The notes under the pieces were generated by a model. The model saw only the letters and a list, made by a program, of their open reading frames with translations, was not told the DNA's origin and ran no database searches. Below, one piece after another: positions 1,148 to 64,000 of a stretch of 64,000 nucleotides of DNA. Origin of the DNA: an uncultured virus (IMG/VR IMGVR_UViG_2585427945_000001) (Duplodnaviria; Heunggongvirae; Uroviricota; Caudoviricetes); the IMG/VR virus record IMGVR_UViG_2585427945_000001, one strand, 5' to 3'. Made by a program: the position numbers and the translations under genes. Numbering within the stretch: position 1 is the stretch's first letter; every line of letters starts with the position of its first letter.

Positions 1148-1411
1148 TCAGCTCACCGTCAGTTCAGCGGTGGACGGGCTCACGGCGAGCGACTCCGGGT
1201 CGTCGGTGACGGTCACGGTGCACGTTCCGCTCTTACCCTGCGCCGTCGCAGTGATCACGGCAGTACCCGCGGACACCGCTGTCACGAGGCCACCTGCCGA
1301 GACCGTGGCCACTGCCGGGGTGGCACTGGTCCACGCGGCTGTGCTGGTCACGGTCTGCTTCGCACCGCTGGTCAGGGTAAGTTCCGCGGCGAGCTGCTGG
1401 GTCTTAGCCAT
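1148..1411 (-). CDS. Stand-alone Ig-like (Big_2) protein, copy 1
   Basis: Identical to 57337-57600; motif WTSATPAVATVSAGGLVTAVSAGTAVITAT. Confidence 0.9.
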   Translation of the reverse strand: MAKTQQLAAELTLTSGAKQTVTSTAAWTSATPAVATVSAGGLVTAVSAGTAVITATAQGKSGTCTVTVTDDPESLAVSPSTAELTVS

Positions 1412-1491
1412 TCATCCTCGTCTGTCGTCGTCGGGTTGGTCACAGGTGCCGCCTCAGCCCGTGGTCAGGGCTGCGGTTCCCGGCGACACCG

Positions 1492-2529
1492 TCAGGAAGA
1501 AGGGTCGTCAAGCACCGTTGCACGGAGGGTGAGGTCCGGGGCGGCCACGACCGGGAGGGCGATGGTGGTCGCGCGAGTCCACACGGTCTGTGGGTCCTCC
1601 GACTTGTAGCCGCCGACGGCGATACCTGCGGCGTCGCCGGCCAGGCCGTACCGCGGGTCGTTCGCCTCAACCGGCACACCCCACAGGGTTTTACCGGCGG
1701 CGTCGCCCTGCTCGGGCAGGAAGAGGAGCTGGTCCTCAGGAGTGATTCGCGTGGCGACTCCGTCCACATTCACCTGCGCGTCGTAGATCTCGACCGGCGG
1801 GATTCCGAAGGAGGCCAGTACCGCGTTGACACTCGCTTCGGTGATCAGGCCGGGAGCCACGGCGGAGCCCGCGAACGCCAGGTCGCGCACCTGCTTGTTC
1901 CGCATCAGCAGGTTGTACACCGTCAGCGACATCAGCGTCGCTGCTGGACGGTGCCCGTTGGTGCGGTTGTACACCGCCACCCACGCGCGAAGGTTGTCGA
2001 TCGCCTTCGCGTTCTCGGTGTCGTCCCACGCCACCGACGCGGTAACCGAGTGGGCCGCCGAACGGCCGAAGTCTACGGACGCCTGGACGCCGTTCTCGTT
2101 CAGCGTGACGGCCCCAGTGAACAGCGCCTCGCCCCGGGCAAGCTCTATGCGCGCCGCGAGCTGAGCGACGAGCTTGACAGAGTCCGACTCCATGGCGTCA
2201 CGGATATCGGCGTTCTGGGTGTCGACGTTCCGCATCTTGATCTGGTCGTACTCAGAGACGGGCATCTTCCTGCTGATGGGCGGCAGTTCGCCGCTCACCC
2301 GAGACCCGCCAGGCCGGTACGCGATGTCCGACTCGGCGTCGAAGGCACGGAACCTCGCCGCCTCTACGAGGCCGCCCCCGCCTCGGCTGAAGCGAAACAT
2401 CAGGTCGTTGATGGTCTCGTTGGGGAGCCACCGGTTCAGGTTGAGCGCGTTCTCCTCGCGGAACCGGAGCGCCTCGCGGGCGTAACCGGTGAGTTCCGCA
2501 GGAGTCGCGTACTCAGTGATGAGCTGCAT
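1492..2529 (-). CDS. Major capsid protein, copy 1
   Basis: Identical to 57681-58718. Confidence 0.9.
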   Translation of the reverse strand: MQLITEYATPAELTGYAREALRFREENALNLNRWLPNETINDLMFRFSRGGGGLVEAARFRAFDAESDIAYRPGGSRVSGELPPISRKMPVSEYDQIKMRNVDTQNADIRDAMESDSVKLVAQLAARIELARGEALFTGAVTLNENGVQASVDFGRSAAHSVTASVAWDDTENAKAIDNLRAWVAVYNRTNGHRPAATLMSLTVYNLLMRNKQVRDLAFAGSAVAPGLITEASVNAVLASFGIPPVEIYDAQVNVDGVATRITPEDQLLFLPEQGDAAGKTLWGVPVEANDPRYGLAGDAAGIAVGGYKSEDPQTVWTRATTIALPVVAAPDLTLRATVLDDPSS

Positions 2530-2542
2530 GTATCAGGGCCTC

Positions 2543-2938: not shown

Positions 2939-2962
2939 GGATCCTCCAGAGGGGAGTAGTGG

Positions 2963-5833: not shown

Positions 5834-5845
5834 GCGTCCTCCTCC

Positions 5846-7558: not shown

Positions 7559-7577
7559 CGGCGCCCCCTCTCTGTAG

Positions 7578-21265: not shown

Positions 21266-21294
21266 GGTGTGCTCCTCTGTGTTCGTGTGCATGA

Positions 21295-21326
21295 GTTATG
21301 GAGGGGTAACCCGCGAATGTTTCACG
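21295..21326 (-). promoter_or_regulatory. Phage-specific promoter motif upstream of the sigma gene
   Basis: CGTGAAACAT-N-CCCCTCCATAAC. Confidence 0.75.
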
Positions 21327-21414
21327 TGACTTCTGTGAGCCAGGCCACACAATGAGAAGGGGTGGCCCCGTCCGGCCCCCGCCTCCTCTACGGGCGGGGG
21401 CCACGTGTGTCGAC

Positions 21415-21639
21415 TTACGCGGGAAGATCCGTGATCGTGAGCCCGTAGCACTCGGCCACGTCGACGTCGGCCAGGGCTAGCGGGCAGGACTCCCAGCCGG
21501 CCGCGAGGTACAGCGTGGAGGAGTTGAGCAGGCGGTCCTCGTGGTGGTGCAGCAGCGGGAGCCCCAGGAGCCCGGACAGCTCCGCCAGGTCCCCGGCCTG
21601 CTCCGCGGTAGATCGCGGCCCCGTCAGTACGGCGTTCAT
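21415..21639 (-). CDS. Hypothetical protein
   Basis: ATGA overlap with the upstream ORF. Confidence 0.6.
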   Translation of the reverse strand: MNAVLTGPRSTAEQAGDLAELSGLLGLPLLHHHEDRLLNSSTLYLAAGWESCPLALADVDVAECYGLTITDLPA

Positions 21640-48669: not shown

Positions 48670-48950
48670 TCGCCGTCACCGCCAGTCTCCTCGTCACCCC
48701 CACCGTCCTCACCGGGCTCCGGGTCCTCGTCGGGGTTGGGTACCGGCTCCACATCGTCGGGGTTCGGCACCGGCTCGTCGCGCAGGTCGGGGTTGCCCGC
48801 CCCGCCGGAACCGTCGCCGTCACCGAACCCGTCGTTGTCTCCGAGCATCCACCCCGGGGAGTACCCCCAGCCCGGCGCGACCGGCGGGTCCGGCTCCGGG
48901 GGCCCCGCGTCGTACACGGGCGATACATCGGGCTCAACTGGGGTACCCAT
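48666..48950 (-). CDS. Highly acidic Pro/Gly/Asp-rich small protein
   Basis: TGATG overlap with the tape measure stop and ATGA overlap with the next gene. Confidence 0.65.
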   Translation of the reverse strand: MGTPVEPDVSPVYDAGPPEPDPPVAPGWGYSPGWMLGDNDGFGDGDGSGGAGNPDLRDEPVPNPDDVEPVPNPDEDPEPGEDGGGDEETGGDGE

Positions 48951-51900
48951 CAGGTCCACCGTCCTGTCTCTAGATCTGCTGCCACGTTGTTGTCGTGCAC
49001 GACGATTTCCGTCCGCACGATGTCCTCGATCTCTCGGTCCCCGACGAAGACCCTGACGTCCGCCTGGAGCGTCGTCGGACTGGAGCCACCCGCGGACATA
49101 CCGTTCGTCGCGCGGGCGATGGCCATGGAATCGGAGTTCGAGTGGACTCGCGTCGGGGTGAGGAACTCCAGCAGTTCCGGCCCCCGCTCCCCGACCCACG
49201 CCGTCTCACCGAGGCCCGGGAAGCCGCCTGCCGCGTACCCGCCGGGACGGTTGTACGCCTTCGGAAGCGACCCGTACGCGGCCTTCGCGTAGCGCATCGA
49301 GGAGAAGATGTTGGCCAGCGGGTTGGTCGAGACCCCGTACAGCTTGGGTCCGACGCCCTGCATCTGGCCGGCGTAGGCGTCGAAGGTCGGCCGGATGACC
49401 TGCATGAGGCCGACCGACGGGTGGCCCGCCTGCCAGTTGGAGTCCCAGCGGTTGACAACGTTCGGGTCACCGCCGGACTCCTGCTGCATGCGGCGCAGCG
49501 TCAGGTCCGCGTACGACGCCGGGTTGCCCGTCATCTTGAGGGCCTGCTGCACCGTGCCACGCCAGCGGTTGACGCTCTTGCCGCCACCGCCCCCGGCGCT
49601 GCTCAGGTACGGCATGGGGTCCACCGTCTTGCCACCGACTCGCGCCTCCAGGTGGAGGTGAGGGCCGGTGACGTTGCCGGTGGCGCCAACCTGTCCGATG
49701 ACCTCGCCCTGCCGGACGCTCTTGCCGAGCGTGGCAACGAGGGAGGACATGTGGGCGTAGAGGGACGAGAGCCCACCACCGTGCGCGACCGTGGCGTGTA
49801 CACCGTACGGTCCGCTGCTCCCCGTCGATGCCACCTTGCCGTCGGCCACGGCGCGAATCGCGGTACCCACGGCCGCCGGGAAGTCGAGCCCGGTGTGATG
49901 CCCGGAGGACCACATCTTGCCCGCGACGCCGAAGCGAGTGCCGTACGGGGCGTTCACGGGCTTGATCCACTGCCCGCTGCCGCCCCCGTCCCCTCCACTG
50001 AAGACCTCGATCGCCTTGTCCTTCAAGGAGTTCAGCACCTTGCCGGGGATCTTGGCGACGGATTTCGACCACGGGTCCGTCAGATACGGCTTCAACTGGC
50101 CCGCGATGTAGTCCTTCGCCTTGCCGAAGATCGCCGTCGGGTCCATGAAGTCGCCGATGCCGGATATGAAGCTGCCGACGTCGTTCGCCTTGTCCTTGAA
50201 CCAGCCGACGATGCCACCGTTCTTGTAGGCCGGCATACCGCCCGCAATCGCCTTCTGAACGCCGCCGACGCCGCCTGAACGAGCAGCGGCATTCCACGCG
50301 TTGATCCGGTCGGCTCCGATTGCCCGGGTCCACTCGGGACGCATGACAGCCTCACCGCCGCCCACGGCGATGACTCGGTCATCACGGCCCGGGGAGTAGC
50401 CGGACATGATGCCACCCGTGTGGAAGCCCTCAAGGTTCAGCTTCTTCAGCGGGTCGGCGCCTGTGACCTTGGAGACCGCATTCCACAACGGCACGATTCC
50501 GCCGTTGTACACGTGCTCCATAATGAAACGCACAGGCTTCTTGGCGATATCCTCGACCTTGTCCCAGGCCCGTTTGATCGAGTCCTTGGCGTCGTTGAAG
50601 GAATCCGCCACGGCACTAACGGCCTTCTTGATTCCGTCGAATGCCGGCTTCAGGGCCTTGTCGTAAAGCCAAGTCGCCTTGTCCGCGATCCAGCCGAAGA
50701 CTGGAGAAAGCACCTTGTCCCAGAGCCACTTACCGGCGTCGCCCAGCGCCTCGAACTTCTTCTTGGCGTCGTCCATGGCGGGCTTGATGGCCTTGTCGTA
50801 AAGCCATCCTGCCTTGTCGCCGATCCACTGGAAGGCAGGCCGGAGTGCCTTCTCCCACAGCCACGTGGCACCGGCTCCGATGCCACGGAAGGCAGGGCCA
50901 AGTGCCTTGTCCCACAGCCACATCCCGATAGCACCGAGCGCCTTGATAGCGAGCCAGACCGGGAGGAGCAGGAGGGTGATCAGGACTGTGATCAGGATCT
51001 GAGCAGCGTCCGCGATGAAGCTGAAAGCGGGTCGGAGCGCCTTCTCCCACAGCCAGACGGCTGCGGAGCCCACCGCCTGCATCCCCGCCCATATGCCGTC
51101 GAATGCCGGCTTGAGGCCGTTGTCCCAGATCCAGATTGCCGCCGTCTTGATGGCACCTGCGACGGTGTCCACCGCGACGCGGAACCAGTCCCAGTTCTTG
51201 TAAGCGTAGACAACGGCTGCGACGAGAAGGCCGACCACGAGAATGATGGCCCGGATGATGGGGACAATTCCCGTCGCGCTCAATGCCACCGCCCAACCGC
51301 TTGTGGCGATGGTGGCGACAATCATGACCGACTCGTACAGCACCATAGCGCCTGCGAAAGCGGTCATGCCGAGCGCTATAGCCTTCTGGGCGAAATAGAG
51401 CAGCCATAGCGTCTGAATGAACTCTGGGCAGTTCGTCGCCAGCCACGATATGGCACCGAAGAGCGGGCCCAGAACGTCGAACATCGCCGTCGACAACGGG
51501 GAAAGAGCTTTCGCGGTGTCCAATGCGGCGCGCATGATGTCGCCCAGGAACTCCGCCAGACCAGGTGACGTGTCCTTGACGTACGCGAGGAACCGTTCAA
51601 AGTCCGGGGACCCCTTCAGGCTCGCACCCCACTTGGCGAATCGGCCGGTGATGCGGTCGGAATGCCTGACGATCCCTTCCATGTGCGGGAGGAACGCGTC
51701 GATCATCCCCGTAATGCCCTTGAGGACGTTGCCGAACGCCCGGCCGAACCCCTCAACGGCAGGCTGGACGTTGCCTCGCAAATCCTCCTTGAAGGACACC
51801 CAGAAAGGCTCCTTCATTTCCGCCGACGCACTGTCCTGGAGGGACTCGATCCCCTTCGCAGCACCGAGCGCCAGAGGCGTCAGGCCGGGCAATGTGTTCT

Positions 51901-54115
51901 TCGCGCTGTCCACCCCGCGGGTAAACAGGGGGAGCACGTCGGGCTGGAGAGCGAGGGACCATTCCTTGAACGCCTCGGTCAGCCCTCGCGGGCCGGCGAT
52001 GGAGTCGTACAACGCCCGCTGGGGCGGTGTGAGGTCCGCAAGCGCCTTACGGTACTCGTCAGCCTTGGAGATCGCCTGGACCGTGGTGTCGATCGAGGAG
52101 AGCCGGGCGGACTGCACCGAGCGTTCGGCGGACGCGATGGACTCCGCGGCAGACACTTGTGCGTCGGCAGCCGACTGAACGGCGTCAGCGACCCCTCGTT
52201 GGGCGTCGGCCACAGACTGAGCGGACTCCCGCGGGGAGCGGGCCGCCTTCGACTGGGCGTCGGCCACGGCCATGGCGGCTTCCCGGACCGCCCTCTGAGC
52301 GTCGGCCAGGCCCTCGGTCTGGTCCCGCACCCGCCGCTGTGCGTCAGCCAGTCGGTCGGCTGCTGTGGTGACGGCGTCGGACCCCTCCACGCCGGCCTTA
52401 CGCATCTTGCGCGCCTCGGCCTGGAGGTCCGTGTAGCTCTGCTTCTGCTTCTTCTGGCTCTGGATCGCCTGGTCGTAGGCAAGCTGAGCCTTGTCGAAGT
52501 CAGTCTGACTCATCAGACCGGCGTCGTACCGACCCGTCGCCCGCTGGAGTTCCTCGCGGGCCTCGGTCACCCGCAGCGCTGCCTCACGCTGGTTGAGGGC
52601 ACCGTCGGTGAGGCGGTCGTTCAGGTCCTTCAGCGCACGTTCGGCGTCCTTGCGGGCCCGGGTGAGGCCCTCCTCCGCCTCCAGGGCGTTCTGGTTGGCG
52701 TCGGTGAGACCCTCCTGCGCGTTCCGCACCCGACGATGGGAGTCCACGAGGGACTGCTCAGCACGCTTGATGTCCTCGGCCGACTGCTTGCGCTGGTCCG
52801 CTGACCGCTGAACGGCCTGCTGGACGGCCCGCTCTGCGTCGGCCACCTGACGAGAGGCGGATGCGATGGACCGGGCGGCGTTTCGGTGGGCGGTTGCGAG
52901 CGTCGCTTGTGCGCCAGCCATCTGAAGGGCCCGCTGCGCTGCCTGCTGGTTGACCTTCGCGCTGTTGTCGGTGGCAGTCGTCGCCTCCTTCTCAGCGGCG
53001 GTCTTCGCCTGCATCACCTCCATCACATCCATGACGGCCGGGATGGCGACGAGGGCCACTGCACCGATGCCACCTGCGGCTGCCGTCGCCATGGCGGCTA
53101 CGGCACCGAGACCCGCGGCAAGTACGGGCCCGAGGGGGATGGCGGCCAGGACCGCAGCCTGAATCGTCAGGCCCAGCAGGGCACTTGAGGCCCCGGACGT
53201 GTCAGCCAGGGCCTTGATGCGGAAGATCTTGGTGTCGTCCGCCATGGCCTGTAGAGCGGCGAGCTGGGCTGCGGCCCGCTGGGCGTCCACCCGGACGTCG
53301 ATGTCATGCCGCTGCACGCTCAGGATCGCGAGGCGCTCTTGCAGATGGTTGATCTTCGCAAGTGCCTCGGTGGCGCTGATGTCGATCCCGATGCGCTTGT
53401 CCGACAGCTCGGTGAGCTGCGCACGAATGCCCTGGATCTGCGCGCGGGCCGGCGATGTGTCGGCGTCGACGTTGATCTCGGGAAGGGATGCCTGCGCCTC
53501 CTTGACGGCCGCACGCATGCGGGCGCCCAGGGTCCCGTCAGTCTCGAACCGGATGTGGCCGGGCCGAGCAGTCAGGAGCGCGATCTCCTCCCGGATCTCC
53601 GCCAGAGCCGCGCGAGCTGTGGCGGTGTCGGCCCGTACCGCGATGTTCGGATGAGCAGCCCCCAGCCGACGGAGCTGCTCCTCCAGCCGCGTGACCTCCG
53701 CCTCCGCGGCTTCAGCGGATACGTCGATACCCACGCGCTTGTTGGAGAGCTGTTCCAGCTTGGCCCGGATGCGGGCGAGCTGGGCGTCTACACCCTCGTC
53801 GCTGAGCTTGACGTCCAGCTTCGGCATGGCCTTGAAGGCCGCTTCGAGCTTCCTCCGGATGCTGCGCGCGAAGGCGCCACCCGCGTCGTCACCCTGCTTG
53901 CCCGCTACGCGAACACCCACTCGACCACCGTTGACGATGGCGTCGGGGATGGCGATGACGATATTCTTCGATATCGCCTCCCCCATCCGCTTACCGGCGT
54001 CCTCGCCGACCCTGTCCGCGATGGGAAGAACCATCGCCTTCAGCTTGGTGTGGAACTGGGGGATCACGGGGACGACGTCGACCGCCGCACCACCGACGAT
54101 GTCAAGGTCCGGCAC
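48950..54115 (-). CDS. Tape measure protein with M23 peptidase and lytic transglycosylase domains
   Basis: 1721 aa, helical, with Trp-periodic repeats; HTGLDF...YAH...GPHLHLE; QESGG...GLMQVI. Confidence 0.95.
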   Translation of the reverse strand: MPDLDIVGGAAVDVVPVIPQFHTKLKAMVLPIADRVGEDAGKRMGEAISKNIVIAIPDAIVNGGRVGVRVAGKQGDDAGGAFARSIRRKLEAAFKAMPKLDVKLSDEGVDAQLARIRAKLEQLSNKRVGIDVSAEAAEAEVTRLEEQLRRLGAAHPNIAVRADTATARAALAEIREEIALLTARPGHIRFETDGTLGARMRAAVKEAQASLPEINVDADTSPARAQIQGIRAQLTELSDKRIGIDISATEALAKINHLQERLAILSVQRHDIDVRVDAQRAAAQLAALQAMADDTKIFRIKALADTSGASSALLGLTIQAAVLAAIPLGPVLAAGLGAVAAMATAAAGGIGAVALVAIPAVMDVMEVMQAKTAAEKEATTATDNSAKVNQQAAQRALQMAGAQATLATAHRNAARSIASASRQVADAERAVQQAVQRSADQRKQSAEDIKRAEQSLVDSHRRVRNAQEGLTDANQNALEAEEGLTRARKDAERALKDLNDRLTDGALNQREAALRVTEAREELQRATGRYDAGLMSQTDFDKAQLAYDQAIQSQKKQKQSYTDLQAEARKMRKAGVEGSDAVTTAADRLADAQRRVRDQTEGLADAQRAVREAAMAVADAQSKAARSPRESAQSVADAQRGVADAVQSAADAQVSAAESIASAERSVQSARLSSIDTTVQAISKADEYRKALADLTPPQRALYDSIAGPRGLTEAFKEWSLALQPDVLPLFTRGVDSAKNTLPGLTPLALGAAKGIESLQDSASAEMKEPFWVSFKEDLRGNVQPAVEGFGRAFGNVLKGITGMIDAFLPHMEGIVRHSDRITGRFAKWGASLKGSPDFERFLAYVKDTSPGLAEFLGDIMRAALDTAKALSPLSTAMFDVLGPLFGAISWLATNCPEFIQTLWLLYFAQKAIALGMTAFAGAMVLYESVMIVATIATSGWAVALSATGIVPIIRAIILVVGLLVAAVVYAYKNWDWFRVAVDTVAGAIKTAAIWIWDNGLKPAFDGIWAGMQAVGSAAVWLWEKALRPAFSFIADAAQILITVLITLLLLPVWLAIKALGAIGMWLWDKALGPAFRGIGAGATWLWEKALRPAFQWIGDKAGWLYDKAIKPAMDDAKKKFEALGDAGKWLWDKVLSPVFGWIADKATWLYDKALKPAFDGIKKAVSAVADSFNDAKDSIKRAWDKVEDIAKKPVRFIMEHVYNGGIVPLWNAVSKVTGADPLKKLNLEGFHTGGIMSGYSPGRDDRVIAVGGGEAVMRPEWTRAIGADRINAWNAAARSGGVGGVQKAIAGGMPAYKNGGIVGWFKDKANDVGSFISGIGDFMDPTAIFGKAKDYIAGQLKPYLTDPWSKSVAKIPGKVLNSLKDKAIEVFSGGDGGGSGQWIKPVNAPYGTRFGVAGKMWSSGHHTGLDFPAAVGTAIRAVADGKVASTGSSGPYGVHATVAHGGGLSSLYAHMSSLVATLGKSVRQGEVIGQVGATGNVTGPHLHLEARVGGKTVDPMPYLSSAGGGGGKSVNRWRGTVQQALKMTGNPASYADLTLRRMQQESGGDPNVVNRWDSNWQAGHPSVGLMQVIRPTFDAYAGQMQGVGPKLYGVSTNPLANIFSSMRYAKAAYGSLPKAYNRPGGYAAGGFPGLGETAWVGERGPELLEFLTPTRVHSNSDSMAIARATNGMSAGGSSPTTLQADVRVFVGDREIEDIVRTEIVVHDNNVAADLETGRWT

Positions 54116-54842: not shown

Positions 54843-54943
54843 GGGCGCGGGTCTCCTATGTCAGGGGGTAGCTCTGCGCGGGTCTACGTGCAGGGTGAAG
54901 CGACGCCCCGGACCCGCGCGGAACGGGGCGTCGCTGGTCAGTA

Positions 54944-55002
54944 GGTGCGGCCTAGCCCAGGTCGAGGGCCACGGTTCCCGGCGACACCGTCAGGGAGAAG
55001 GG
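54944..55002 (-). other. Putative -1 frameshift cassette on the major tail gene, encoding an Ig donor strand
   Basis: C CCT TCT CCC TGA followed by a hairpin; -1 frame reads ...SLTVSPGTVALDLG*. Confidence 0.7.
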
Positions 55003-55598
55003 GTGTCACCCTCCGCCTCGAAGAAGCCCGAAACGTCTACGCCGCCGTAGTCGATCGAGCGCCTCACAGCACTGGAGTTACCGGCACCCTTGTAGAACTT
55101 GAACGTCATCTGCACGTTCATGACGTCACTCGTCTGCGGCTGTTCGTCGCCACGCTCGACGACCTTCCCGTTCGGCATGTAGAGCCGCATCCGCTTGTCA
55201 CCGTCCAGGGTGTCGAAGACGAATGCGTACCGAAGGTCAGCCGGCTTGTCGGGGAGGGAGTACGTCACGATGTCCTCGGTGGGCTCCAGGGAGGCCACGG
55301 GCACGTTGTCGTACAGGGCCCGGACAAGCGGGGACAGGCCCTCCAGGAAGGTGACCTGCGTGCTCTTGACGCTCTTCGTCATGAGCGTGCGGATGGGCTC
55401 CAGAGAACCTGCCGCATCGACGTCCTTGGACTCCTCCTCAATCTTGAAGAGGCCGCCGTCGGTCGTCACCCAACCCATGTTCATCCACGGGGTGGCCGGG
55501 TCGGCGAAGTCGACCGGCATCACGGTGTTGATCGGCGCCGCGTACACGAGATAGTCACTTGCGCCGAACGTCAGATCGGCATTGCGGGTGTCCGCCAT
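54990..55598 (-). CDS. Major tail (tube) protein
   Basis: W.NMGWVTTDG motif; upstream of the tail assembly chaperones. Confidence 0.9.
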   Translation of the reverse strand: MADTRNADLTFGASDYLVYAAPINTVMPVDFADPATPWMNMGWVTTDGGLFKIEEESKDVDAAGSLEPIRTLMTKSVKSTQVTFLEGLSPLVRALYDNVPVASLEPTEDIVTYSLPDKPADLRYAFVFDTLDGDKRMRLYMPNGKVVERGDEQPQTSDVMNVQMTFKFYKGAGNSSAVRRSIDYGGVDVSGFFEAEGDTPSP

Positions 55599-56033: not shown

Positions 56034-56382
56034 GCTCCGCCAGGGCCGCCATGTACGCCTTGGTCAGCGGGGCGTACCGCGGGATGTTCCAGTTGCCGTA
56101 CTCCACCGCCTTGGCGTGGGGAGCGGTGTTCACCACCATGGCTCCGTGCCGCATCCGGGGCTTACCGCGGAACGGGATGTTTCTGAACACCGGCTCGACG
56201 CTGAAGCTGGCCTTGTACAGGCCGGGGTGCCTGTCCTCGGCAGGGTCGCCCACCGGGGAGAAGCCCTCCGCGGAATGCATGATCCGCACCGCTGCGTCGC
56301 GGCACGGCTTGCCCATCCACGGGCGACTGACCATGCGGCCAAGGCCGCTGTACTTACCGACGTACTTGGAGCGGTACGTCAT
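56020..56382 (-). CDS. Neck protein (HK97 gp10-like)
   Basis: SPVG....GLYKASF...APHAKAVEYG. Confidence 0.78.
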   Translation of the reverse strand: MTYRSKYVGKYSGLGRMVSRPWMGKPCRDAAVRIMHSAEGFSPVGDPAEDRHPGLYKASFSVEPVFRNIPFRGKPRMRHGAMVVNTAPHAKAVEYGNWNIPRYAPLTKAYMAALAEHANG

Positions 56383-56738
56383 CCGGTCACCTCCTTCAAG
56401 GCGGCTTCTACGCGAGCAAGGGACGTCAGGGGAAGGACGAGCGGGCGGCCGATGACCTCCCACGCCTCGGCCCCGTCCTCGCTGACGATGCGGTCCGCTG
56501 GGCGAACGTCGGTGCCTAGAGGAGCAGCGAACACTCTCCGGGTGATCACGGTCTCGCTGGCGTCGTGCTCCTCCGTCGAGGAGCCCACGGTCACGCCGTA
56601 CGGGCTCATCACGGCGCAGTGGTCGACGCGGATGCGGATCTTGGGGCCGGGCACCCAGGACCCCGTAGAGTCCCGGACCCGCTCCCCGGCCCGCTCGATG
56701 TACCACGTCTGCGACAGCACGTTGGCGATGAGGCTCAT
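56379..56738 (-). CDS. Head-tail stopper/adaptor
   Basis: DVRPADRI....WEVIGRP; position after the connector. Confidence 0.75.
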   Translation of the reverse strand: MSLIANVLSQTWYIERAGERVRDSTGSWVPGPKIRIRVDHCAVMSPYGVTVGSSTEEHDASETVITRRVFAAPLGTDVRPADRIVSEDGAEAWEVIGRPLVLPLTSLARVEAALKEVTG

Positions 56739-57112
56739 ACCGGCCGCCACACGGTGACCGGCGGGACGTAGTCCGCGGGGGCGATGTCGAGCATGCCGGC
56801 GCCTGTGGGCATCCCGACTGCACGACGAAGCCGTCGAAGCTCGTCGTCGGAGAGGACGACGCCCGTCTGTGAGTCTGCGTAGGACTGGAGCATGCCGCCC
56901 GCCTGCTCGGTCCTGAGCCCCTGGGGGTTCGTCAGGATCCGAGCGGCGACGGACAGGGCCACCGTCTTGATGCCGCGCTGCGGGGGCTCGGTGATCCGGT
57001 CCCCCACCTCACCGAGGATGGCGTCTTCAGCCAGGTCGTGGGCGAGCTGGGCGCGCTCCTCGGTGAGCGGGGTGCCCAGGAGGGCCCGCAGCTCAGCCAG
57101 GCTGAACAGCAT
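56735..57112 (-). CDS. Head-tail connector
   Basis: VALSVAARILTNPQGLRTEQAG...LSDDEL. Confidence 0.8.
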   Translation of the reverse strand: MLFSLAELRALLGTPLTEERAQLAHDLAEDAILGEVGDRITEPPQRGIKTVALSVAARILTNPQGLRTEQAGGMLQSYADSQTGVVLSDDELRRLRRAVGMPTGAGMLDIAPADYVPPVTVWRPV

Positions 57113-57335
57113 CGCCGCCCCCCGTCTTCCGGCGAGGAGAGGCCCGTTTGACGGGGGCTGCTCTCTTCGCCGGCGGCGCCACGTGTGCCGACTTACGTGG
57201 AGCCGGCGCGATCTCCCACGCCTTCGAGTTGGTGATGAGCGCCTGTGCCCACTCGGGCACATCGTCGCCGGGGCCGAACACATGGGCGCGACCCTGGGCG
57301 TCTGTCAGGTGTACGTTCGTCCGGAGTCGCGCCAT
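57093..57335 (-). CDS. Small head-associated hypothetical protein
   Basis: FGPGDDVPEWA...ITNSKAW with a basic tail. Confidence 0.75.
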   Translation of the reverse strand: MARLRTNVHLTDAQGRAHVFGPGDDVPEWAQALITNSKAWEIAPAPRKSAHVAPPAKRAAPVKRASPRRKTGGGDAVQPG

Positions 57336-57336
57336 G

Positions 57337-57600
57337 TCAGCTCACCGTCAGTTCAGCGGTGGACGGGCTCACGGCGAGCGACTCCGGGTCGTCGGTGACG
57401 GTCACGGTGCACGTTCCGCTCTTACCCTGCGCCGTCGCAGTGATCACGGCAGTACCCGCGGACACCGCTGTCACGAGGCCACCTGCCGAGACCGTGGCCA
57501 CTGCCGGGGTGGCACTGGTCCACGCGGCTGTGCTGGTCACGGTCTGCTTCGCACCGCTGGTCAGGGTAAGTTCCGCGGCGAGCTGCTGGGTCTTAGCCAT
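57337..57600 (-). CDS. Stand-alone Ig-like (Big_2) protein with the first strand moved to the C-terminus
   Basis: Starts at KTQQLAA, ends DDPESLAVSPSTAELTVS; GAGGA RBS. Confidence 0.88.
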   Translation of the reverse strand: MAKTQQLAAELTLTSGAKQTVTSTAAWTSATPAVATVSAGGLVTAVSAGTAVITATAQGKSGTCTVTVTDDPESLAVSPSTAELTVS

Positions 57601-57633
57601 TCATCCTCGTCTGTCGTCGTCGGGTTGGTCACA

Positions 57634-57693
57634 GGTGCCGCCTCAGCCCGTGGTCAGGGCTGCGGTTCCCGGCGACACCGTCAGGAAGAAGGG
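57634..57693 (-). other. Putative -1 frameshift cassette on the major capsid gene, encoding an Ig donor strand
   Basis: C CCT TCT TCC TGA followed by a hairpin; -1 frame reads ...FLTVSPGTAALTTG*. Confidence 0.7.
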
Positions 57694-58718
57694 TCGTCAA
57701 GCACCGTTGCACGGAGGGTGAGGTCCGGGGCGGCCACGACCGGGAGGGCGATGGTGGTCGCGCGAGTCCACACGGTCTGTGGGTCCTCCGACTTGTAGCC
57801 GCCGACGGCGATACCTGCGGCGTCGCCGGCCAGGCCGTACCGCGGGTCGTTCGCCTCAACCGGCACACCCCACAGGGTTTTACCGGCGGCGTCGCCCTGC
57901 TCGGGCAGGAAGAGGAGCTGGTCCTCAGGAGTGATTCGCGTGGCGACTCCGTCCACATTCACCTGCGCGTCGTAGATCTCGACCGGCGGGATTCCGAAGG
58001 AGGCCAGTACCGCGTTGACACTCGCTTCGGTGATCAGGCCGGGAGCCACGGCGGAGCCCGCGAACGCCAGGTCGCGCACCTGCTTGTTCCGCATCAGCAG
58101 GTTGTACACCGTCAGCGACATCAGCGTCGCTGCTGGACGGTGCCCGTTGGTGCGGTTGTACACCGCCACCCACGCGCGAAGGTTGTCGATCGCCTTCGCG
58201 TTCTCGGTGTCGTCCCACGCCACCGACGCGGTAACCGAGTGGGCCGCCGAACGGCCGAAGTCTACGGACGCCTGGACGCCGTTCTCGTTCAGCGTGACGG
58301 CCCCAGTGAACAGCGCCTCGCCCCGGGCAAGCTCTATGCGCGCCGCGAGCTGAGCGACGAGCTTGACAGAGTCCGACTCCATGGCGTCACGGATATCGGC
58401 GTTCTGGGTGTCGACGTTCCGCATCTTGATCTGGTCGTACTCAGAGACGGGCATCTTCCTGCTGATGGGCGGCAGTTCGCCGCTCACCCGAGACCCGCCA
58501 GGCCGGTACGCGATGTCCGACTCGGCGTCGAAGGCACGGAACCTCGCCGCCTCTACGAGGCCGCCCCCGCCTCGGCTGAAGCGAAACATCAGGTCGTTGA
58601 TGGTCTCGTTGGGGAGCCACCGGTTCAGGTTGAGCGCGTTCTCCTCGCGGAACCGGAGCGCCTCGCGGGCGTAACCGGTGAGTTCCGCAGGAGTCGCGTA
58701 CTCAGTGATGAGCTGCAT
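57681..58718 (-). CDS. Major capsid protein (lambda E-like family)
   Basis: 345 aa after the decoration and scaffold genes; GELPPISRK, ARIELARGEAL. Confidence 0.92.
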   Translation of the reverse strand: MQLITEYATPAELTGYAREALRFREENALNLNRWLPNETINDLMFRFSRGGGGLVEAARFRAFDAESDIAYRPGGSRVSGELPPISRKMPVSEYDQIKMRNVDTQNADIRDAMESDSVKLVAQLAARIELARGEALFTGAVTLNENGVQASVDFGRSAAHSVTASVAWDDTENAKAIDNLRAWVAVYNRTNGHRPAATLMSLTVYNLLMRNKQVRDLAFAGSAVAPGLITEASVNAVLASFGIPPVEIYDAQVNVDGVATRITPEDQLLFLPEQGDAAGKTLWGVPVEANDPRYGLAGDAAGIAVGGYKSEDPQTVWTRATTIALPVVAAPDLTLRATVLDDPSS

Positions 58719-58731
58719 GTATCAGGGCCTC

Positions 58732-59127
58732 TCAGACGAAGATGATGCGGCCGGCGACATCCGCCTTGCCGTTGGCGTCGACGGGGACAGGGAGCTTCGC
58801 CTCACGGATGAAGCAGTGGATGAGCATCGAGCCCACGACCGAGGTGGACGCGACCCCGCGGGCGTCGACGTCCTGAGCGGTGAAGAGGAAGCCCACGAGG
58901 GTCTGCCGACCGTCGCTCGCGGCGTCGTCGTACGGGCCGTACTTCCCGCCGGTCGTCACCTTGCCGAGCGGGATGCCGCTCTTGATGTAGCCGTCCGGGT
59001 AGTGGGTGGCCTTCGTGAACTTCGAGATGTCCAGGGTGACCGAGACAGGGGCGTCAGTGCCGTGGGCGCTGCCGAGCCAGTCACGGCGGTCCTGGGTGAA
59101 GCTCTCAACCTTGAGGTTGAGGTCCAT
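58732..59127 (-). CDS. Head decoration protein
   Basis: GYIKSGIPLG...YGPYD..ASDGRQ; between scaffold and capsid genes. Confidence 0.8.
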   Translation of the reverse strand: MDLNLKVESFTQDRRDWLGSAHGTDAPVSVTLDISKFTKATHYPDGYIKSGIPLGKVTTGGKYGPYDDAASDGRQTLVGFLFTAQDVDARGVASTSVVGSMLIHCFIREAKLPVPVDANGKADVAGRIIFV

Positions 59128-59151
59128 GGATCCTCCAGAGGGGAGTAGTGG

Positions 59152-59688
59152 TTACTTGCCGTGCTTCTGCCGGAAGCGCTCAGCTCCGGTCGCGACCGAC
59201 GAGCCTCCGCCGACGTCGGATCCGCGGTCTCCGCCAACCCGGTAGGTTCCGGTGGCGCCCGTGGGAGCGAAGTCCTTCAGCAGCGCGTCTGCGTCCGCCT
59301 CCAGCTCCTCCTTCGTGGAGCCCTGGAGACGCGCGGCCTGCGTGGTGGTGAGGCTCTTCGCGATGGCGACTTCGAGAAGCAGCGCCCTACGGACCGCTGC
59401 GTCGGCCTCCGCGCGAGCGGTAGCGGCGGCTGCCTCTGCGGTCGCCTTCTCGGCCTGGACCCGCTCGGTCTCGGTGAGGTCGGCCGCCTGGCGCCTCTTC
59501 AGCTCCTCGTCGGCCTGGCGCAGTCGCTCCAGCTCCGTGGCGTCCGGGGCGGCCTTCGAGGCTGCCTCATGCTTGCGGGCGTGGTGCTTCCAGTACGCCA
59601 CCTGGTGTTCGGGCGTCATGTCGGCCGTCGGCGTGTTGTCCGGGTAGCCGTGCTCGTTGACGGTCGGGAGGTTCTCAGGCTCAGGCAT
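59152..59688 (-). CDS. Capsid scaffolding protein
   Basis: YWKHHARKHE; coiled coil; RLQGSTKEELEADA. Confidence 0.85.
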   Translation of the reverse strand: MPEPENLPTVNEHGYPDNTPTADMTPEHQVAYWKHHARKHEAASKAAPDATELERLRQADEELKRRQAADLTETERVQAEKATAEAAAATARAEADAAVRRALLLEVAIAKSLTTTQAARLQGSTKEELEADADALLKDFAPTGATGTYRVGGDRGSDVGGGSSVATGAERFRQKHGK

Positions 59689-59729
59689 GGTGGGGTCCCC
59701 TGTCGGGAGTCGTCAGCCCGTGGCGGGCG

Positions 59730-60539
59730 TCAGGTCGGAAGACGGATGTCATCGGGGCCGGTGAAGCGCTGGCCCTTGAAGCCCAGAACGGGCCCGATCT
59801 CGCCGTGGTCGTTGGCGATAATGATCTTGCGGTAGTCCACCGCGCGGCCTCCGCGGTCGAAGGTGCCGAGCGCGTCCTCCACGGCATCGTGGATGCGTTC
59901 GAGCTTCTCTTCGTCGATGACCTGGCCGGGGTCCTCGTCGGCTGTCACCAGCTTCACGAGGCAGTCACACCCGGGATGGATCGGCGCTAGGTCGCGCTTG
60001 TGGTAGCGCTGGGTGGAGGCGATCATGCAGAGGGCGCAGTCGTACTCGCCCTGTAGTTCTCGGACGGTGTACGAGAAGCGAGGCATGTCGTCCCCCACCT
60101 CTCGCACAGTGTGGGTCCGGGCTAGCTGTAGATCCGTCTTGGCGATGGTTTCCAGCCGGTGCGTACCGCGGGCCAAGGCGGCGTCGAAAGCGACGTCCTT
60201 GTCCAACGCGGCCCAAACCTCGGCGAACGGGCGCCGGTAGACGGTCTCAGGATCGACGTCGCGTAGCGCGCGTCCGGTCACCCTGTCAAAGTCCAGGTCC
60301 GTCCGCGGTGCTCGCCCGTCGACCTCGCGGTACAACTGCTCCAGGTACGACGCCGTGAGAGCGGCGACCTGCCGCTGACCACCAAGAAGCACCGGCAGAG
60401 TAGTGCGCTCGAAGCGCCGCACGTCGGCATCACGCCACGAGCCGAGACCGGACCATGCGCGAGTGGTACGACCGAGGGTCGTCCTCCACACGCTCTGCAC
60501 TGCGGCGCCGTACTGCCGGTCAAGCCGCGTCAGGGACAT
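59730..60539 (-). CDS. Minor capsid / maturation (MuF-like) protein
   Basis: CALC..ASTQRY.....PIHPGCDC; follows the portal gene. Confidence 0.75.
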   Translation of the reverse strand: MSLTRLDRQYGAAVQSVWRTTLGRTTRAWSGLGSWRDADVRRFERTTLPVLLGGQRQVAALTASYLEQLYREVDGRAPRTDLDFDRVTGRALRDVDPETVYRRPFAEVWAALDKDVAFDAALARGTHRLETIAKTDLQLARTHTVREVGDDMPRFSYTVRELQGEYDCALCMIASTQRYHKRDLAPIHPGCDCLVKLVTADEDPGQVIDEEKLERIHDAVEDALGTFDRGGRAVDYRKIIIANDHGEIGPVLGFKGQRFTGPDDIRLPT

Positions 60540-62028
60540 CGTCCTCCTCGCGGGTGATCAGCGTTCGGGAGTCGCGCTTGCCCTGGAGGGACGCCGGCTC
60601 GGGATCCGTGTCGGGCACGGCGTTCAGGGCGTCAGCCGCGCGGTCGATCTCCATGCGGGAGATCTGCGACGGGGTGTAGCCCATGTCCTCCATGCGCTGC
60701 CGCCACGGGACGCCGGCCGAAGCCTTCTTGACGGCTGCGTCCGCGAGTTCCGAGACGGTGCGGGACTCGGGGTCACGCCAGATGGTCTCAGCGCTCCATG
60801 TCGTGGCGCGCTCGTCGTCGCCCAGGACCCGGAAGGCCATGCGCATGACGCTCTCCCATGACTCGCCGTACGCACGTTGACGGTCGCGCACCTTGCTGAT
60901 GAGTCCGGTTTCCGCAGCTTTCAGCGCGTCGCCGGAGACGTTCACAACGGCGCCGATCAGGTAATGCGGAGGTGTGCGGCTGATTGCGGCCAGATCCTGC
61001 ACGGCGGCAGTCACGGCGCGCACGTAGGGAGCTAGGTCCGTAGCCGCGAACTCCCCAAAACGGACGTCGGGGTTGTCGGTCGTCCAGAGCTTGCGGATGT
61101 CTAGCTGGAAGGGCTGGATCGCTGCCCCGGTGATCGGGTCCTCGTCGACCTCCAGGCCGGCGGCGTACCGCTGTCGGAAGGCGCCGTACTTCATGGCGGC
61201 AATGAGGTTGATCAGCGAGAGGTTGATGCGGTTCTGGATCGAGAGGACGTCCTCGTGCTCCGCGAACCCTTCCGGCCGACGGTTTCGACGGTTGATGAAG
61301 GGAACGAGGGGCACCACGCCCAGCTCGTTCACACGGTAGCCGTCGGGCAGGTTCGGAAGCGCCAGGGCGTCCCACCCACGAAGCTCCGCAGCGCGACCGG
61401 AGAAAGCCGGGTTGCCAGTCTTCGTGGTGAACTCGTGCACCCCCGTCGGCGTCCAAAGCGTCGCCCGGGTGTTCCCGGTCCAGTCATCACGCCAGAGCTT
61501 CAGTCCGGCAGCCAGCTTGCGCCGATTGCCCTGCTCATGTTCGACAGCCACCTGCGTGGGTGTCTCATGAGTCAGCACAGGCCGCCCGTCGTCGCCCTTC
61601 TCCACGAGGACGAACGCACGCCGCTGAGACATGGCGCCGTAGTGCACCAGGGCGGAATCAGCATCCATGCTGTTCTCCTGCCAGATGCGGTTGGCCTCCC
61701 GGTCTGCCACACGAGCATCGTCAGGGGAGTCCCGGTCTGCATCGTCGAACCGGAAGCCGTCAACCCCCAGCCGCTCGCCGGGGCTGTCGATGACGAGACT
61801 GAGCCAGTTGGTGCGGGCGTCCCGCATCCACTCCGAAATCTCGCGCGGATCAACGCCCGGAACGTGTGGCAGCTTCGGCTTCCCCTCTGCGGCCTTCCGG
61901 AGGGAAGTGAGCCCTGGGGTGACCTCGTTGTCGTCGTCGATGCTGTCCTTGCGCTCGTCCAGCATCCTCTTGCCTAGCCGCTGGAGCCACCATCCCGGGG
62001 ATTCCGGAACCTGTGCGTCAACCGGCAT
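60520..62028 (-). CDS. Portal protein (SPP1 gp6-like)
   Basis: ANRIWQEN, LGVVPLVPF.N, SGDALKAAE; follows terL. Confidence 0.93.
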   Translation of the reverse strand: MPVDAQVPESPGWWLQRLGKRMLDERKDSIDDDNEVTPGLTSLRKAAEGKPKLPHVPGVDPREISEWMRDARTNWLSLVIDSPGERLGVDGFRFDDADRDSPDDARVADREANRIWQENSMDADSALVHYGAMSQRRAFVLVEKGDDGRPVLTHETPTQVAVEHEQGNRRKLAAGLKLWRDDWTGNTRATLWTPTGVHEFTTKTGNPAFSGRAAELRGWDALALPNLPDGYRVNELGVVPLVPFINRRNRRPEGFAEHEDVLSIQNRINLSLINLIAAMKYGAFRQRYAAGLEVDEDPITGAAIQPFQLDIRKLWTTDNPDVRFGEFAATDLAPYVRAVTAAVQDLAAISRTPPHYLIGAVVNVSGDALKAAETGLISKVRDRQRAYGESWESVMRMAFRVLGDDERATTWSAETIWRDPESRTVSELADAAVKKASAGVPWRQRMEDMGYTPSQISRMEIDRAADALNAVPDTDPEPASLQGKRDSRTLITREEDDVPDAA

Positions 62029-62040
62029 GCGTCCTCCTCC

Positions 62041-63753
62041 CTAGAATGCGACGAGGCGGCCAGTCCGCTTCTTTCGCTTAGTGATCCCTGCGGCAACGGC
62101 GTCAGCGCGGCACTCGTAGGCGAGCGTCGCGGACATGGCGGCGTCGATCTTCTTCGGCGACTTCGGGTGTTCCTTGCCGATGCCGATGTGGTTGCGTCCC
62201 AGCGGCCGACGCTTGGCGTTCAGCACGTGGCGGGTGAGTGTGGTGCCTTTGCGGGCGTAGTCGGCGTCGGTGTCACCGGCCTTGTCGGTGCCGCACCACG
62301 AAAGGCCCTTGTCGTCAACGGCCTCCACGAAGCGGTTGAGGGCCTGCTCCATGGCCGTCGGACGGTTGGTCCACCACTCCAGCGGGCGGGCCTGTGTAGC
62401 GCGTACCGACAGGTTCTCGCCGTAGTCCCTGGTCCAGGCGTCCGCGTAGTCCTGCCAGTGCGGCGGGTCGCAGTAGAAGCCGCACACGTCGAAGCGCTCG
62501 AAGGCTCGGGCGACGGCAGCGTCAACCGACTCCCGGTCGACCTGCCACCCGTCGCCCTCTGGACCCTCGGGCTTCTCCCAGACCCCGAGGAGCTGGAGGT
62601 GGCCGTCAGATACGCGGCAGGCTGTAAGGGCCGTGGCGTCGTCGCGGATCGATCCGTCGAAGCCGAGTGTGACCAACTCGCCGGGGGCGATCTCCTCGTC
62701 CCGCCGGCAGAGAAGCCAGGCGTCCGGGTCCATCCACGCATCGGAGGACGACGTCCGGGAGTTGAGGAAGTAGCGCTTGCCGTCCGCGGAGTCGGTGCGG
62801 AGGTCGTAGAAGTCGTCGACGAGGGTGTCTTCGTCGATCCACTCCATGGCGTCGCCGTACGCGTCCCGGAGAGCGGCACGGAGCTGGACCTCATCCTTCA
62901 AGTCCGCGCAAACGCCGTAGCGGTGGTCGTACATGAGTCGCGACCGGCCGCGCTTCTTGCGGCCCTCGCGGATCGCTTCGGCCTCCTCGTACGTCCGCTC
63001 AGCGACACTGTCCTGGCCCGGGGCGAACATGGTCGTGGTTTCGAGATACCACGTGCCGGCGCCCTTCTTCCTCTTGCGGAGGTTTCGGGTCACGGTCGCG
63101 TACATGCGACGCAGCTCAGGCGTGTTGTACAGGTGCGTCTCGTCGAAGCAGACCCACGTCTCCTTACCGCCGTCCTTCGAGGAGGATGAAGCGGTTGACG
63201 GGGTGATCTCCCCACCCTGCGGAAGGTTGATCTTCGTCAGGCCGGGATCGATGCCTGGGATGGCGGAGAGGGGTGACGACTCGTCGGTCAGGTTGAAGTA
63301 GATCGTGTCGTAGACGTTGCCGGTCTGGCCTTCCTCCGTGGCCATGATCCGGAGGTACGGCACCTTGACCGGGCGGCCCATCGGCTCACCGGGCTCGTAG
63401 ACGTACTCGAAGCCGAAGCCCCAGGGGTCTCGGTAGACCTCTCCGCCCTCCGCCCAGCCGGCGAACCGGGCGGGGCCGAGCGCTTCGAAGAGTCCGATGC
63501 GGGCGCCTAGGCCGGACTTGTCGCAGCCCTTGGGGCGGGAGAAGAAGGCCGAGTCGTAGAGGAGCTTGCCCTCGTCGTCATCGACCGCGTAACAGTCCAC
63601 CACGAAGCCGCTGTACTCGTCGCCGTGGCGGACGGGCTCACCCTGGACGTCACCAGGGCCGTGGACGACCATGAACTCCATCCACGCCAGCGCCATCCAC
63701 CCGATCGAGCGGGACCGATCATGACCCGGGGCGCGTACCGTGACGTGCGGCAT
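62041..63753 (-). CDS. terL: Terminase large subunit, copy 2
   Basis: Identical to 5846-7558. Confidence 0.93.
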   Translation of the reverse strand: MPHVTVRAPGHDRSRSIGWMALAWMEFMVVHGPGDVQGEPVRHGDEYSGFVVDCYAVDDDEGKLLYDSAFFSRPKGCDKSGLGARIGLFEALGPARFAGWAEGGEVYRDPWGFGFEYVYEPGEPMGRPVKVPYLRIMATEEGQTGNVYDTIYFNLTDESSPLSAIPGIDPGLTKINLPQGGEITPSTASSSSKDGGKETWVCFDETHLYNTPELRRMYATVTRNLRKRKKGAGTWYLETTTMFAPGQDSVAERTYEEAEAIREGRKKRGRSRLMYDHRYGVCADLKDEVQLRAALRDAYGDAMEWIDEDTLVDDFYDLRTDSADGKRYFLNSRTSSSDAWMDPDAWLLCRRDEEIAPGELVTLGFDGSIRDDATALTACRVSDGHLQLLGVWEKPEGPEGDGWQVDRESVDAAVARAFERFDVCGFYCDPPHWQDYADAWTRDYGENLSVRATQARPLEWWTNRPTAMEQALNRFVEAVDDKGLSWCGTDKAGDTDADYARKGTTLTRHVLNAKRRPLGRNHIGIGKEHPKSPKKIDAAMSATLAYECRADAVAAGITKRKKRTGRLVAF

Positions 63754-63772
63754 CGGCGCCCCCTCTCTGTAG

Positions 63773-64000
63773 TTAGCCGGTCAGCCTCGCTCGCCGTGAA
63801 GTGATGTCGGAAACGTTGCTGCCAGGGCTCTGTGCGGGCCTCTGCGGGGCGCTCGTGGGGTCGTCGACCTTGAGCTTGAGGCGGGCCCTGTCCTCCGGCG
63901 TGGCGCCGAACTTGGCGACTCTGAGGCGTACCTCAGCGGCCAGGGTCCAATGCCCTTTCTGCCAGTACGCGTTGTGCAGCAATGCCGTATCCAAGAGGCT
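63773..64000 (-). CDS. terS: Terminase small subunit, copy 2 (truncated by the window edge)
   Basis: Matches the 3' part of 7578-8045. Confidence 0.85.
   Translation of the reverse strand, partial: SLLDTALLHNAYWQKGHWTLAAEVRLRVAKFGATPEDRARLKLKVDDPTSAPQRPAQSPGSNVSDITSRRARLTG

Follow-up and report, generated by a model that had tools for sequence, protein, structure and literature searches.

Immunoglobulin-like (Ig-like) domains have reportedly been found appended to phage capsid and tail proteins by programmed frameshifting, in work that Fraser et al. are said to have presented in 2006 and 2007. Frameshift-appended Ig-like domains are recorded for T3 gene 10, Lactobacillus phage A2 and the Listeria phages A118, A500 and PSA in the available part of one source (Atkins et al. 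2016, PMC5009743). Such domains, known for about 20 years, have, so far as is known, always been whole and on one chain. In the DNA analysed here, a stretch of 64,000 nucleotides from an uncultured virus of the Caudoviricetes (IMG/VR record IMGVR_UViG_2585427945_000001; hereafter the window), an Ig-like domain of the Big_2 family is divided between genes: its first strand, here called the tag, is encoded by the -1 frame at the end of the major capsid protein gene, and the remainder, here called the catcher or Ig protein, by a small gene directly downstream. The conclusion that a split Ig domain is completed in trans by frameshift-added tags is well supported. As in the Fraser-type systems, so far as the available text describes them, the slip site lies at the very end of the capsid and/or tail gene, the Ig product would be a minority product, some phages carry it on both proteins, and the module moves between genes. 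Unlike those systems, the shifted frame holds only one strand (17 codons), and the rest is a separate gene with its own start, which would serve two tagged proteins and which carries a spare strand.

In chaperone-usher pili, an Ig-like subunit without one edge strand is completed by a strand of its neighbour, giving head-to-tail polymers; the missing strand is the C-terminal strand G, the donor is an N-terminal extension, and a periplasmic chaperone and an usher take part. The window system resembles pili in its strand-deficient Ig subunit and in the proposed completion by a donated strand, but the missing strand is the N-terminal A/A', the donor is C-terminal, assembly would be cytoplasmic, and the first donor would be made by frameshifting on a virion protein. 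The neighbours of the Ig gene are phage head and tail genes, no search having been aimed at chaperone or usher families. The engineered SpyTag/SpyCatcher pair is a split CnaB2 Ig-like domain, in which a strand tag of about 13 residues becomes joined by a Lys-Asp isopeptide bond. A beta-strand tag of about 13 residues and a separately made, truncated Ig-like domain are found here as well, so that the window system, if the proposal is true, would represent a natural equivalent of the engineered split-domain tags. Unlike SpyTag it is natural, and no position with Lys, Asp or Asn is common to the tags LTVSPGTAALTTG and LTVSPGTVALDLG and their homologues, indicating that tag binding would be non-covalent. 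The capsid protein gp8 and tail-tube protein gp13 of mycobacteriophage Douge carry C-terminal Ig-like domains (PDB 8ZDH and others), which in isolation bind host surface glycans weakly (PMC13033339). Douge resembles the present case in its actinobacterial host and in having the same domain type on head and tail; unlike here, its domains are in-frame and covalent, and the available part of that paper describes no frameshift, split or spare strand. A literature search, with most subscription journals outside its reach, gave no description of a split Ig domain or of donor-strand assembly on phage virions.

The elements at the end of the capsid gene are as follows, in positions of the window.

57681..58718, minus strand: major capsid protein gene, 345 amino acids, ending LDDPSS before the stop (Pfam Phage_cap_E, 5e-33; PHROG 29 major head protein, 1.6e-65)
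57687..57693, minus strand: proposed -1 slip heptamer C CCU UCU, in which both zero-frame codons, CCU and UCU, are rare, from the sequence
57643..57696, minus strand: capsid tag, a -1 open reading frame (ORF) of 17 codons plus stop (57645-57643), RPFFLTVSPGTAALTTG, corresponding to Big_2 strand A/A' by alignment A6 and fold
57634..57679, minus strand: predicted hairpin 7 nucleotides past the heptamer, with a 9-base-pair outer stem (GGUGUCGCC / GGCGGCACC) and an inner 6-base-pair hairpin, from folding
57601..57642, minus strand: 42-nucleotide spacer with the hairpin 3' arm, a ribosome-binding site (GAGGA) and a second TGA in frame, from the sequence
57337..57600, minus strand: 87-residue Big_2 protein without strands A/A' (the catcher), by Pfam Big_2 and AlphaFold2
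57340..57393, minus strand: spare strand-A-like peptide, the C-terminal 18 residues of the Ig protein, DDPESLAVSPSTAELTVS, from the sequence

The capsid gene ends, on the minus strand, with CTT GAC GAC CCT TCT TCC TGA (stop at 57683-57681). Its -1 frame opens at 57696, directly past a TGA at 57699-57697, so that any shift is confined to the last four codons. The tag stop codon sits immediately before the 3' arm of the hairpin; from this stop to the ATG of the Ig gene there are 42 nucleotides, in phase, with the second TGA abutting the ATG. Among the 4,997 codons of 12 structural genes, CCT and TCT are used at 6.2 and 2.8 per thousand, and the in-frame dicodon CCT-TCT is confined to two places, the third-last codon in the capsid and in the major tail protein gene. 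The gene end, the -1 extension with its stop and the 87-residue Ig gene had been recognized by the first-pass annotation, and all were confirmed on the sequence.

The absence of the N-terminal strand from the Ig gene, also claimed there, was borne out by the Pfam Big_2 profile (PF02368): residues 3-67 match positions 18-78 of 79 with 35.9 bits (cut-off, 22.8), and since the match starts at position 18, the first 17 profile positions are missing. The split relatives described below score 43.4 (L071) and 37.7 bits (L072). The split point is uniform, the split proteins of three lineages starting at profile position 18 and the unsplit -1 ORFs at 4-5; in none of these three lineages does the split Ig protein hold a complete Big_2 domain (strands A to G) on one chain. 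At its other end, the C-terminal 18 residues align without gaps, as had been noted, to the end of the capsid protein and its extension; by manual count, 11 of the 18 residues are identical. Several of the matching residues use different codons (Ser TCG against AGC, Leu CTG against CTC), indicating that the repeat is not a recent DNA copy. This spare C-terminal strand is present in all eight split Ig genes with a complete 3' end (window, L006, L071, P318, L072, L074, L085 and L100) and in none of the 15 unsplit domains of which the 3' end was read (L073, L158, L161, L173, L182 and L185-L192).

The first-pass annotation had taken the system to be specific to the capsid, which proved wrong: the major tail protein of the window bears a second tag, and in those unsplit relatives that were found the fusion is to a tail protein.

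54990..55598, minus strand: major tail protein gene, 202 amino acids, ending GDTPSP before the stop (PHROG 476 / 117 major tail protein)
54952..55005, minus strand: tail tag cassette, with the heptamer CCCUUCU at 54996-55002 and a 17-codon -1 frame, HPFSLTVSPGTVALDLG, ending at a TAG (54954-54952), from the sequence
54944..54988, minus strand: predicted tail-cassette hairpin, an outer stem (a single C-C mismatch) and an inner hairpin, from folding (z-score +0.41, alone not significant)

The tail gene ends with ACC CCT TCT CCC TGA, and its cassette has 23 nucleotides identical to the capsid cassette (CCTGACGGTGTCGCCGGGAACCG). With the cassette on both genes, there are two strand-A tags (head and tail tube) for one Ig gene. 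A candidate third cassette at 47331-47341 was rejected as a chance match within a long ORF. In the related phage of locus L006, the tail gene (L184 900-960) ends with GAGGGCTGA GCCCCACCTACC; on comparison with 54940-55010 of the window, the window at the equivalent point has an insertion of about 55 nucleotides, the cassette, and then continues with GGGCTAG GCCGCACCTAC. Since the sequence is similar at both junctions, the tag cassette behaves as a small insertable module.

These elements suggest the following mechanism. A -1 frameshift would occur at C CCU UCU, with the hairpin 7 nucleotides downstream as the likely stimulator, so that a fraction of ribosomes would exchange the last residues of the major capsid or major tail protein for a strand A/A' peptide of about 13 residues. 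The catcher, as its sequence shows, is a separately translated 87-residue protein consisting of the remaining Big_2 strands B to G. Beta-strand complementation would dock it on the tagged subunits, and a single small gene would thereby decorate head and tail after assembly. Taken jointly, tagging, catcher and docking probably explain the cassettes and the Ig gene. Frameshifting would then supply the strand only, the body of the domain being added after assembly, which could explain how one 264-nucleotide gene decorates two different lattices, how a bulky domain is kept from procapsid and tail-tube assembly, and how Ig copy number is uncoupled from frameshift efficiency. By analogy with Douge, the purpose of the Ig decoration is likely to be weak adhesion to host surface glycans.

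Structure models are consistent with this account. In alignment A6 the tag falls on the first strand of complete Big_2 domains, and the split appears as a 17-column insertion at the A/B turn. A single-chain model was made of tag, spacer and Ig protein, with the two TGA codons read as tryptophan; the spacer served as a tether, and the chain as a test of the idea that the -1 frame and the Ig gene are in phase. In this model, the tag forms strands at residues 2-8 and 11-15, with a predicted local distance difference test (pLDDT) score of 92 over residues 1-10, the spacer is disordered, and the spare C-terminal peptide has no secondary structure. The whole matches a complete Big_2 domain from residue 1 (LigA 93-182, Z 15.8, root-mean-square deviation [rmsd] 0.9 Å, 85 residues). 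The closest solved phage structures are Douge gp8 296-382 (Z 14.1) and Douge gp13 (Z 12.6), with 42% identity to the tag-plus-Ig model, and lambda gpV gave Z 11.0. The alignment and fold together agree with the earlier proposal that the extension is the strand that the downstream Ig domain lacks. The Ig protein modelled alone by AlphaFold2 (mean pLDDT 95.1) has strands only to residue 68, and residues 69-87 are without secondary structure; as expected in the first-pass annotation, the monomer was not modelled as self-complemented. It superposes on LigA 109-182 (Z 10.9, rmsd 0.9 Å, 69 residues) and matches Douge gp8 310-382, in both cases without the first strand of the known domain.

The spare strand could act in two ways. 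The linker before it has the length of the inter-domain linkers in natural tandem Big_2 arrays (alignment A4), so that the spare strand could fill the groove of a next copy, and short head-to-tail chains would be anchored on the tag. Such donation to the next copy, giving short Ig chains, is a fair possibility, although we lean slightly against it. Its full form is put forward only tentatively, as a chaperone-free donor-strand polymer: frameshift tags on the capsid and tail tube would nucleate Ig chains, the virion would wear a brush of Ig fibres, fibre number would be set by frameshift efficiency and fibre length by Ig supply, and, the cassette of about 55 nucleotides being mobile, any virion protein could serve as anchor. 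If chains form, they would represent a second, independently evolved donor-strand polymerisation outside bacterial pili. Alternatively, the C-terminal strand could cap the groove of its own molecule or of a dimer partner and keep free Ig protein soluble until displaced by the tag, leaving one Ig per tag as in self-chaperoned donor-strand exchange. The single spare strand that each split Ig protein carries would suit a cap in a ratio of one to one; in engineered self-complemented pilins, too, a short linker leads to a C-terminal donor strand; and with the tag in cis, the pLDDT of the C-terminal strand falls from about 90 to 64-65, as if the two competed for one groove. We nevertheless consider capping unlikely, because in the monomer model the tail is not paired as a strand with the domain to which it is attached and instead follows the linker and next-domain first strand of tandem-domain proteins (SbsC, 87 residues, rmsd 4.3 Å; Sap, 85 residues, rmsd 4.2 Å), the linker is of tandem-array length, and from Ig topology a parallel A'-G pairing would be out of reach with about five linker residues.

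The tag and catcher arrangement recurs in other phages. A capsid-based comparison covered 68 loci (Streptomyces phage Samy, 46 viral contigs and 21 genome contigs, with some duplicates of one contig), and the Ig gene and cassette were found only in L006. In the other 67, the capsid gene ends in a variant of ADVL, ADVI or ADVIA, with L009, L047 and L067 as outliers, and a connector gene mostly follows directly. L006 retains the heptamer, the tag (LTVSPGTAALTLG), the stop position and the 42-nucleotide spacer. Its tag differs from that of the window by three changes, two of them synonymous in the -1 frame; the first 20 nucleotides past the tag stop are identical, and the Ig coding region carries many changes. 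This invariance of the first 20 nucleotides of the spacer is attributable to the hairpin 3' arm lying there. No cassette was found on the tail protein gene of the L006 phage. A search for homologous proteins with the window Ig protein gave five matches, of which only that of L006 is of the split kind.

More distant members were identified in other lineages. In Thermobifida phage P318 (L069), the capsid protein belongs to PHROG 267, and its gene has the canonical heptamer C CCA AAU with a -1 frame ending in FTLTVTPDSVSLELGS; a separate 88-residue Ig gene, starting MAATQQL and ending in INVEPSSAELELEE, follows, and the major tail protein gene ends in CCCTTCT with a -1 frame ending in PFSLTVSPATVELSF. 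The metagenomic contigs L072 and L074 have the same arrangement as P318. The unrelated provirus IMGVR_UViG_2615840680_000002 (G002) carries the cassette on its capsid gene (L177, PHROG 29; tag LTVTPSSASIPLG) and on its tail protein gene (L178/L071, PHROG 117; tag LTVAPSAVVLPLG), with a single Ig gene located after the tail gene and not after the capsid gene. L183 has a cassette followed by a separate Ig gene at the contig end. Its -1 extension (1501-1620) runs for 37 codons through the hairpin, with no stop before the 3' arm, and its Ig gene starts in a different frame. L183 may represent an intermediate or variant split form. Two further split Ig genes, L085 and L100, are on contigs that lack upstream DNA. 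A strand-A -1 ORF thus lies directly upstream of the split Ig gene in all seven distinct contigs with upstream DNA (window, L006, L071, P318/L069, L072, L074 and L183); the earlier expectation that the -1 frame would be conserved in relatives holds wherever the Ig gene occurs.

A second tag is present on the other major virion protein in four of the five genomes that could be checked (the tail protein of the window, the capsid protein of G002, and the tail proteins of P318 and L072), the L006 phage being the exception. Even in tags about 2.6 kb away from the Ig gene, the strand motif persists together with heptamer and hairpin. The capsid proteins are of different families (PHROG 29 in the window, PHROG 267 in P318), and the split Ig proteins are only 49-60% identical between lineages, indicating that the module has been kept through long divergence. 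The arrangement is beyond chance. Among 12 viral-contig matches to the cassette pattern, six (L172, L174, L175, L176, L179 and L181) were unrelated. A tblastn search of cultured phages with the L071 Ig protein gave no match, and the matches listed besides P318 itself in the search with the P318 Ig protein are annotated, by annotation only, as fused or multi-domain; the best 150 matches of the split-Ig alignment among protein representatives were all giant multi-repeat Big_2 proteins.

The -1 frame had been described as in phase with the Ig gene, and this stands for the window, L006 and L071 but fails for P318 and L183, the spacing not being conserved. The in-phase cases would suit a covalent capsid-Ig fusion, made by frameshifting and subsequent read-through of the two TGA codons. 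Such read-through is extremely improbable: besides the out-of-phase relatives, the stops vary (TGA and TGA in the window, TAG and TAA in L071), the window tail tag and the G002 capsid tag have no Ig gene downstream, and hardly any product would be expected from a frameshift that had to be followed by two read-throughs.

The frameshift signal was compared over the cassettes. CCCUUCU is invariant in eight cassettes from six contigs, and the canonical C CCA AAU is present in the capsid genes of P318, L072 and L074. In minimum-free-energy folds of all 13 cassettes, a 9-base-pair stem lies 7-8 nucleotides past the heptamer and encloses a second hairpin; a predicted stimulatory structure at the usual downstream distance of 5-9 nucleotides is therefore conserved across the relatives. 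Stem position 19 is U-G, A-U, G-U, G-C or U-A, with one mismatch (L173), and position 21 is G-C or C-G. RNAalifold on a MAFFT alignment, in which two rows were off by one column, gave the same stem with two compensatory pairs. The z-scores of the hairpins against shuffles range from +0.64 to -6.0 over the cassettes. The hairpin 3' arm codes for residues past strand A in the unsplit forms, and is non-coding spacer after the tag stop in the split forms. For annotation, a practical rule follows: where a capsid or tail gene ends with CCCUUCU or CCCAAAU, attention is due to very short -1 ORFs past the heptamer, which currently go unannotated.

Unsplit forms carry the same cassette. In L173 and L182, the slip cassette CCCTTCTCCCTGACGGTG is located on tail protein genes, and the -1 frame encodes a whole 85-residue Big_2 domain with the stop directly after strand G. 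The shifted frame thus adds a whole Ig domain to a virion protein in L173 and L182, which are ordinary Fraser-type members, and not in the window. Their shared cassette agrees with the descent from a frameshift-Ig fusion that had been supposed at the outset. In-frame fusion is the common way of displaying a Big_2 domain: all eight matching genomes in a sample of 401 from Streptomyces are in-frame fusions, and of 11 matching genomes in a class-wide sample of 401, the two inspected (L158 and L161) are in-frame fusions and the rest lie in long open frames. The Streptomyces cases (L185-L192 and L073, from the 8 of 401 sampled genomes) are prophage tail proteins with an in-frame, complete C-terminal Big_2 domain.

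The presence of a split Ig protein in virions is known from P318, not from the phage of the window. In the available part of the P318 study (PMC6893835, Table 1), liquid chromatography-tandem mass spectrometry of purified virions detected ORF22 with 18% coverage, the capsid protein with 47% and the tail protein with 31%. The split Ig protein of P318 is this ORF22, listed there as a 'hypothetical protein' of 7.8 kDa (21166-21432); its detection accords with the earlier suggestion that the Ig protein is a virion component. The available text of that study reports no fibres. Phage P318 of Thermobifida fusca is a cultured test system for the proposal.

Several points weigh against the proposal that frameshifting adds tags which complete the domain in trans. 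The split form is rare, being found in none of the 802 actinobacterial genomes of the two samples of 401. The window hairpins are not significant against shuffles (z -1.49 for the capsid and +0.41 for the tail), so that the case for the hairpin rests on its recurrence across relatives rather than on the window; in addition, the hairpin 5' arm codes for part of the tag, and constraint on the RNA thus explains some of the peptide conservation. CCCUUCU is not a canonical X XXY YYZ heptamer, and re-pairing of the A-site transfer RNA on it would, by our own reasoning, need a G-U pair at the middle position. Given this non-canonical site, frameshifting in the window is presumptive, and for all these phages we infer it from sequence. 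The P318 spectra were searched, according to the available text, against predicted ORFs only, so that frameshift peptides could not have been found. All structure models are of single chains, and because the input alignments already put the tag on strand A, the folds indicate compatibility and not binding or affinity. The monomer tail (residues 69-87) has a pLDDT of about 90 yet no secondary structure, which is unexplained; the input alignment also put this tail on the strand of the next domain, and the tandem-array rows in alignment A4 may have caused the high value. The tail tag is missing in the L006 phage, indicating that it is dispensable.

Rarity, the weak hairpins of the window and the missing tail tag, together with the existence of unsplit ancestors (L173 and L182), would also be expected if an ancestral frameshift-Ig fusion had been broken by a stop, leaving the short -1 ORFs as remnants and the Ig protein bound to the virion otherwise, or dispensable. 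Against this, the cut point, heptamer, hairpin, open tag ORF, ribosome-binding site with ATG, and spare strand are kept across diverged lineages, tags far from the Ig gene are intact, of the three tag changes that separate L006 from the window, two leave the -1 frame peptide unaltered, and P318 virions contain the Ig protein as far as that source goes. The same cut point, the spare strand in eight of eight genes and the persistence of far tags are not what is expected of decaying remnants. This relic explanation, like read-through, is unlikely; even with the points in its favour we regard it as very improbable.

The window has a G+C content of 67% and represents a Streptomyces-type siphophage or prophage genome of about 56.2 kb, with Streptomyces phage Samy as the closest cultured relative (79.7% identity over 76% of the capsid region). 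By self-comparison, bases 1-7805 duplicate 56184-64000 at 99.8% identity; the window is thus longer than the genome and wraps round, so that the capsid end and Ig gene occur twice, 1111-1531 being identical to 57300-57720.

1148..1511, minus strand: second, identical copy of the capsid-end cassette and Ig gene, from the wrap of the window

Small indels separate the two end copies (the alignment has 7818 columns, and the portal ORF is 467 amino acids in one and 502 in the other), and the repeat could reflect terminal redundancy, a concatemer or assembly noise. The structural genes on the minus strand are, in order, terminase, portal, protease, scaffold, lambda-gpD-like decoration protein, capsid protein, Ig gene, connector and neck genes, major tail protein, chaperones and tape measure protein. 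The capsid gene is directly preceded by the gpD-like head decoration protein gene (58732-59127, minus strand; Pfam HDPD, 5.9e-08), and with the Ig system beside it, the head would bear two kinds of decoration. The slot between capsid and connector genes, filled by the Ig gene in the window, holds an unrelated 83-residue ORF in Samy (L001 4032-4283) and in L003, and is empty in most other relatives. The C-terminal third of the tape measure protein (1721 amino acids, 48950-54115, minus strand) resembles, by eye only, an M23 peptidase and a lytic transglycosylase.

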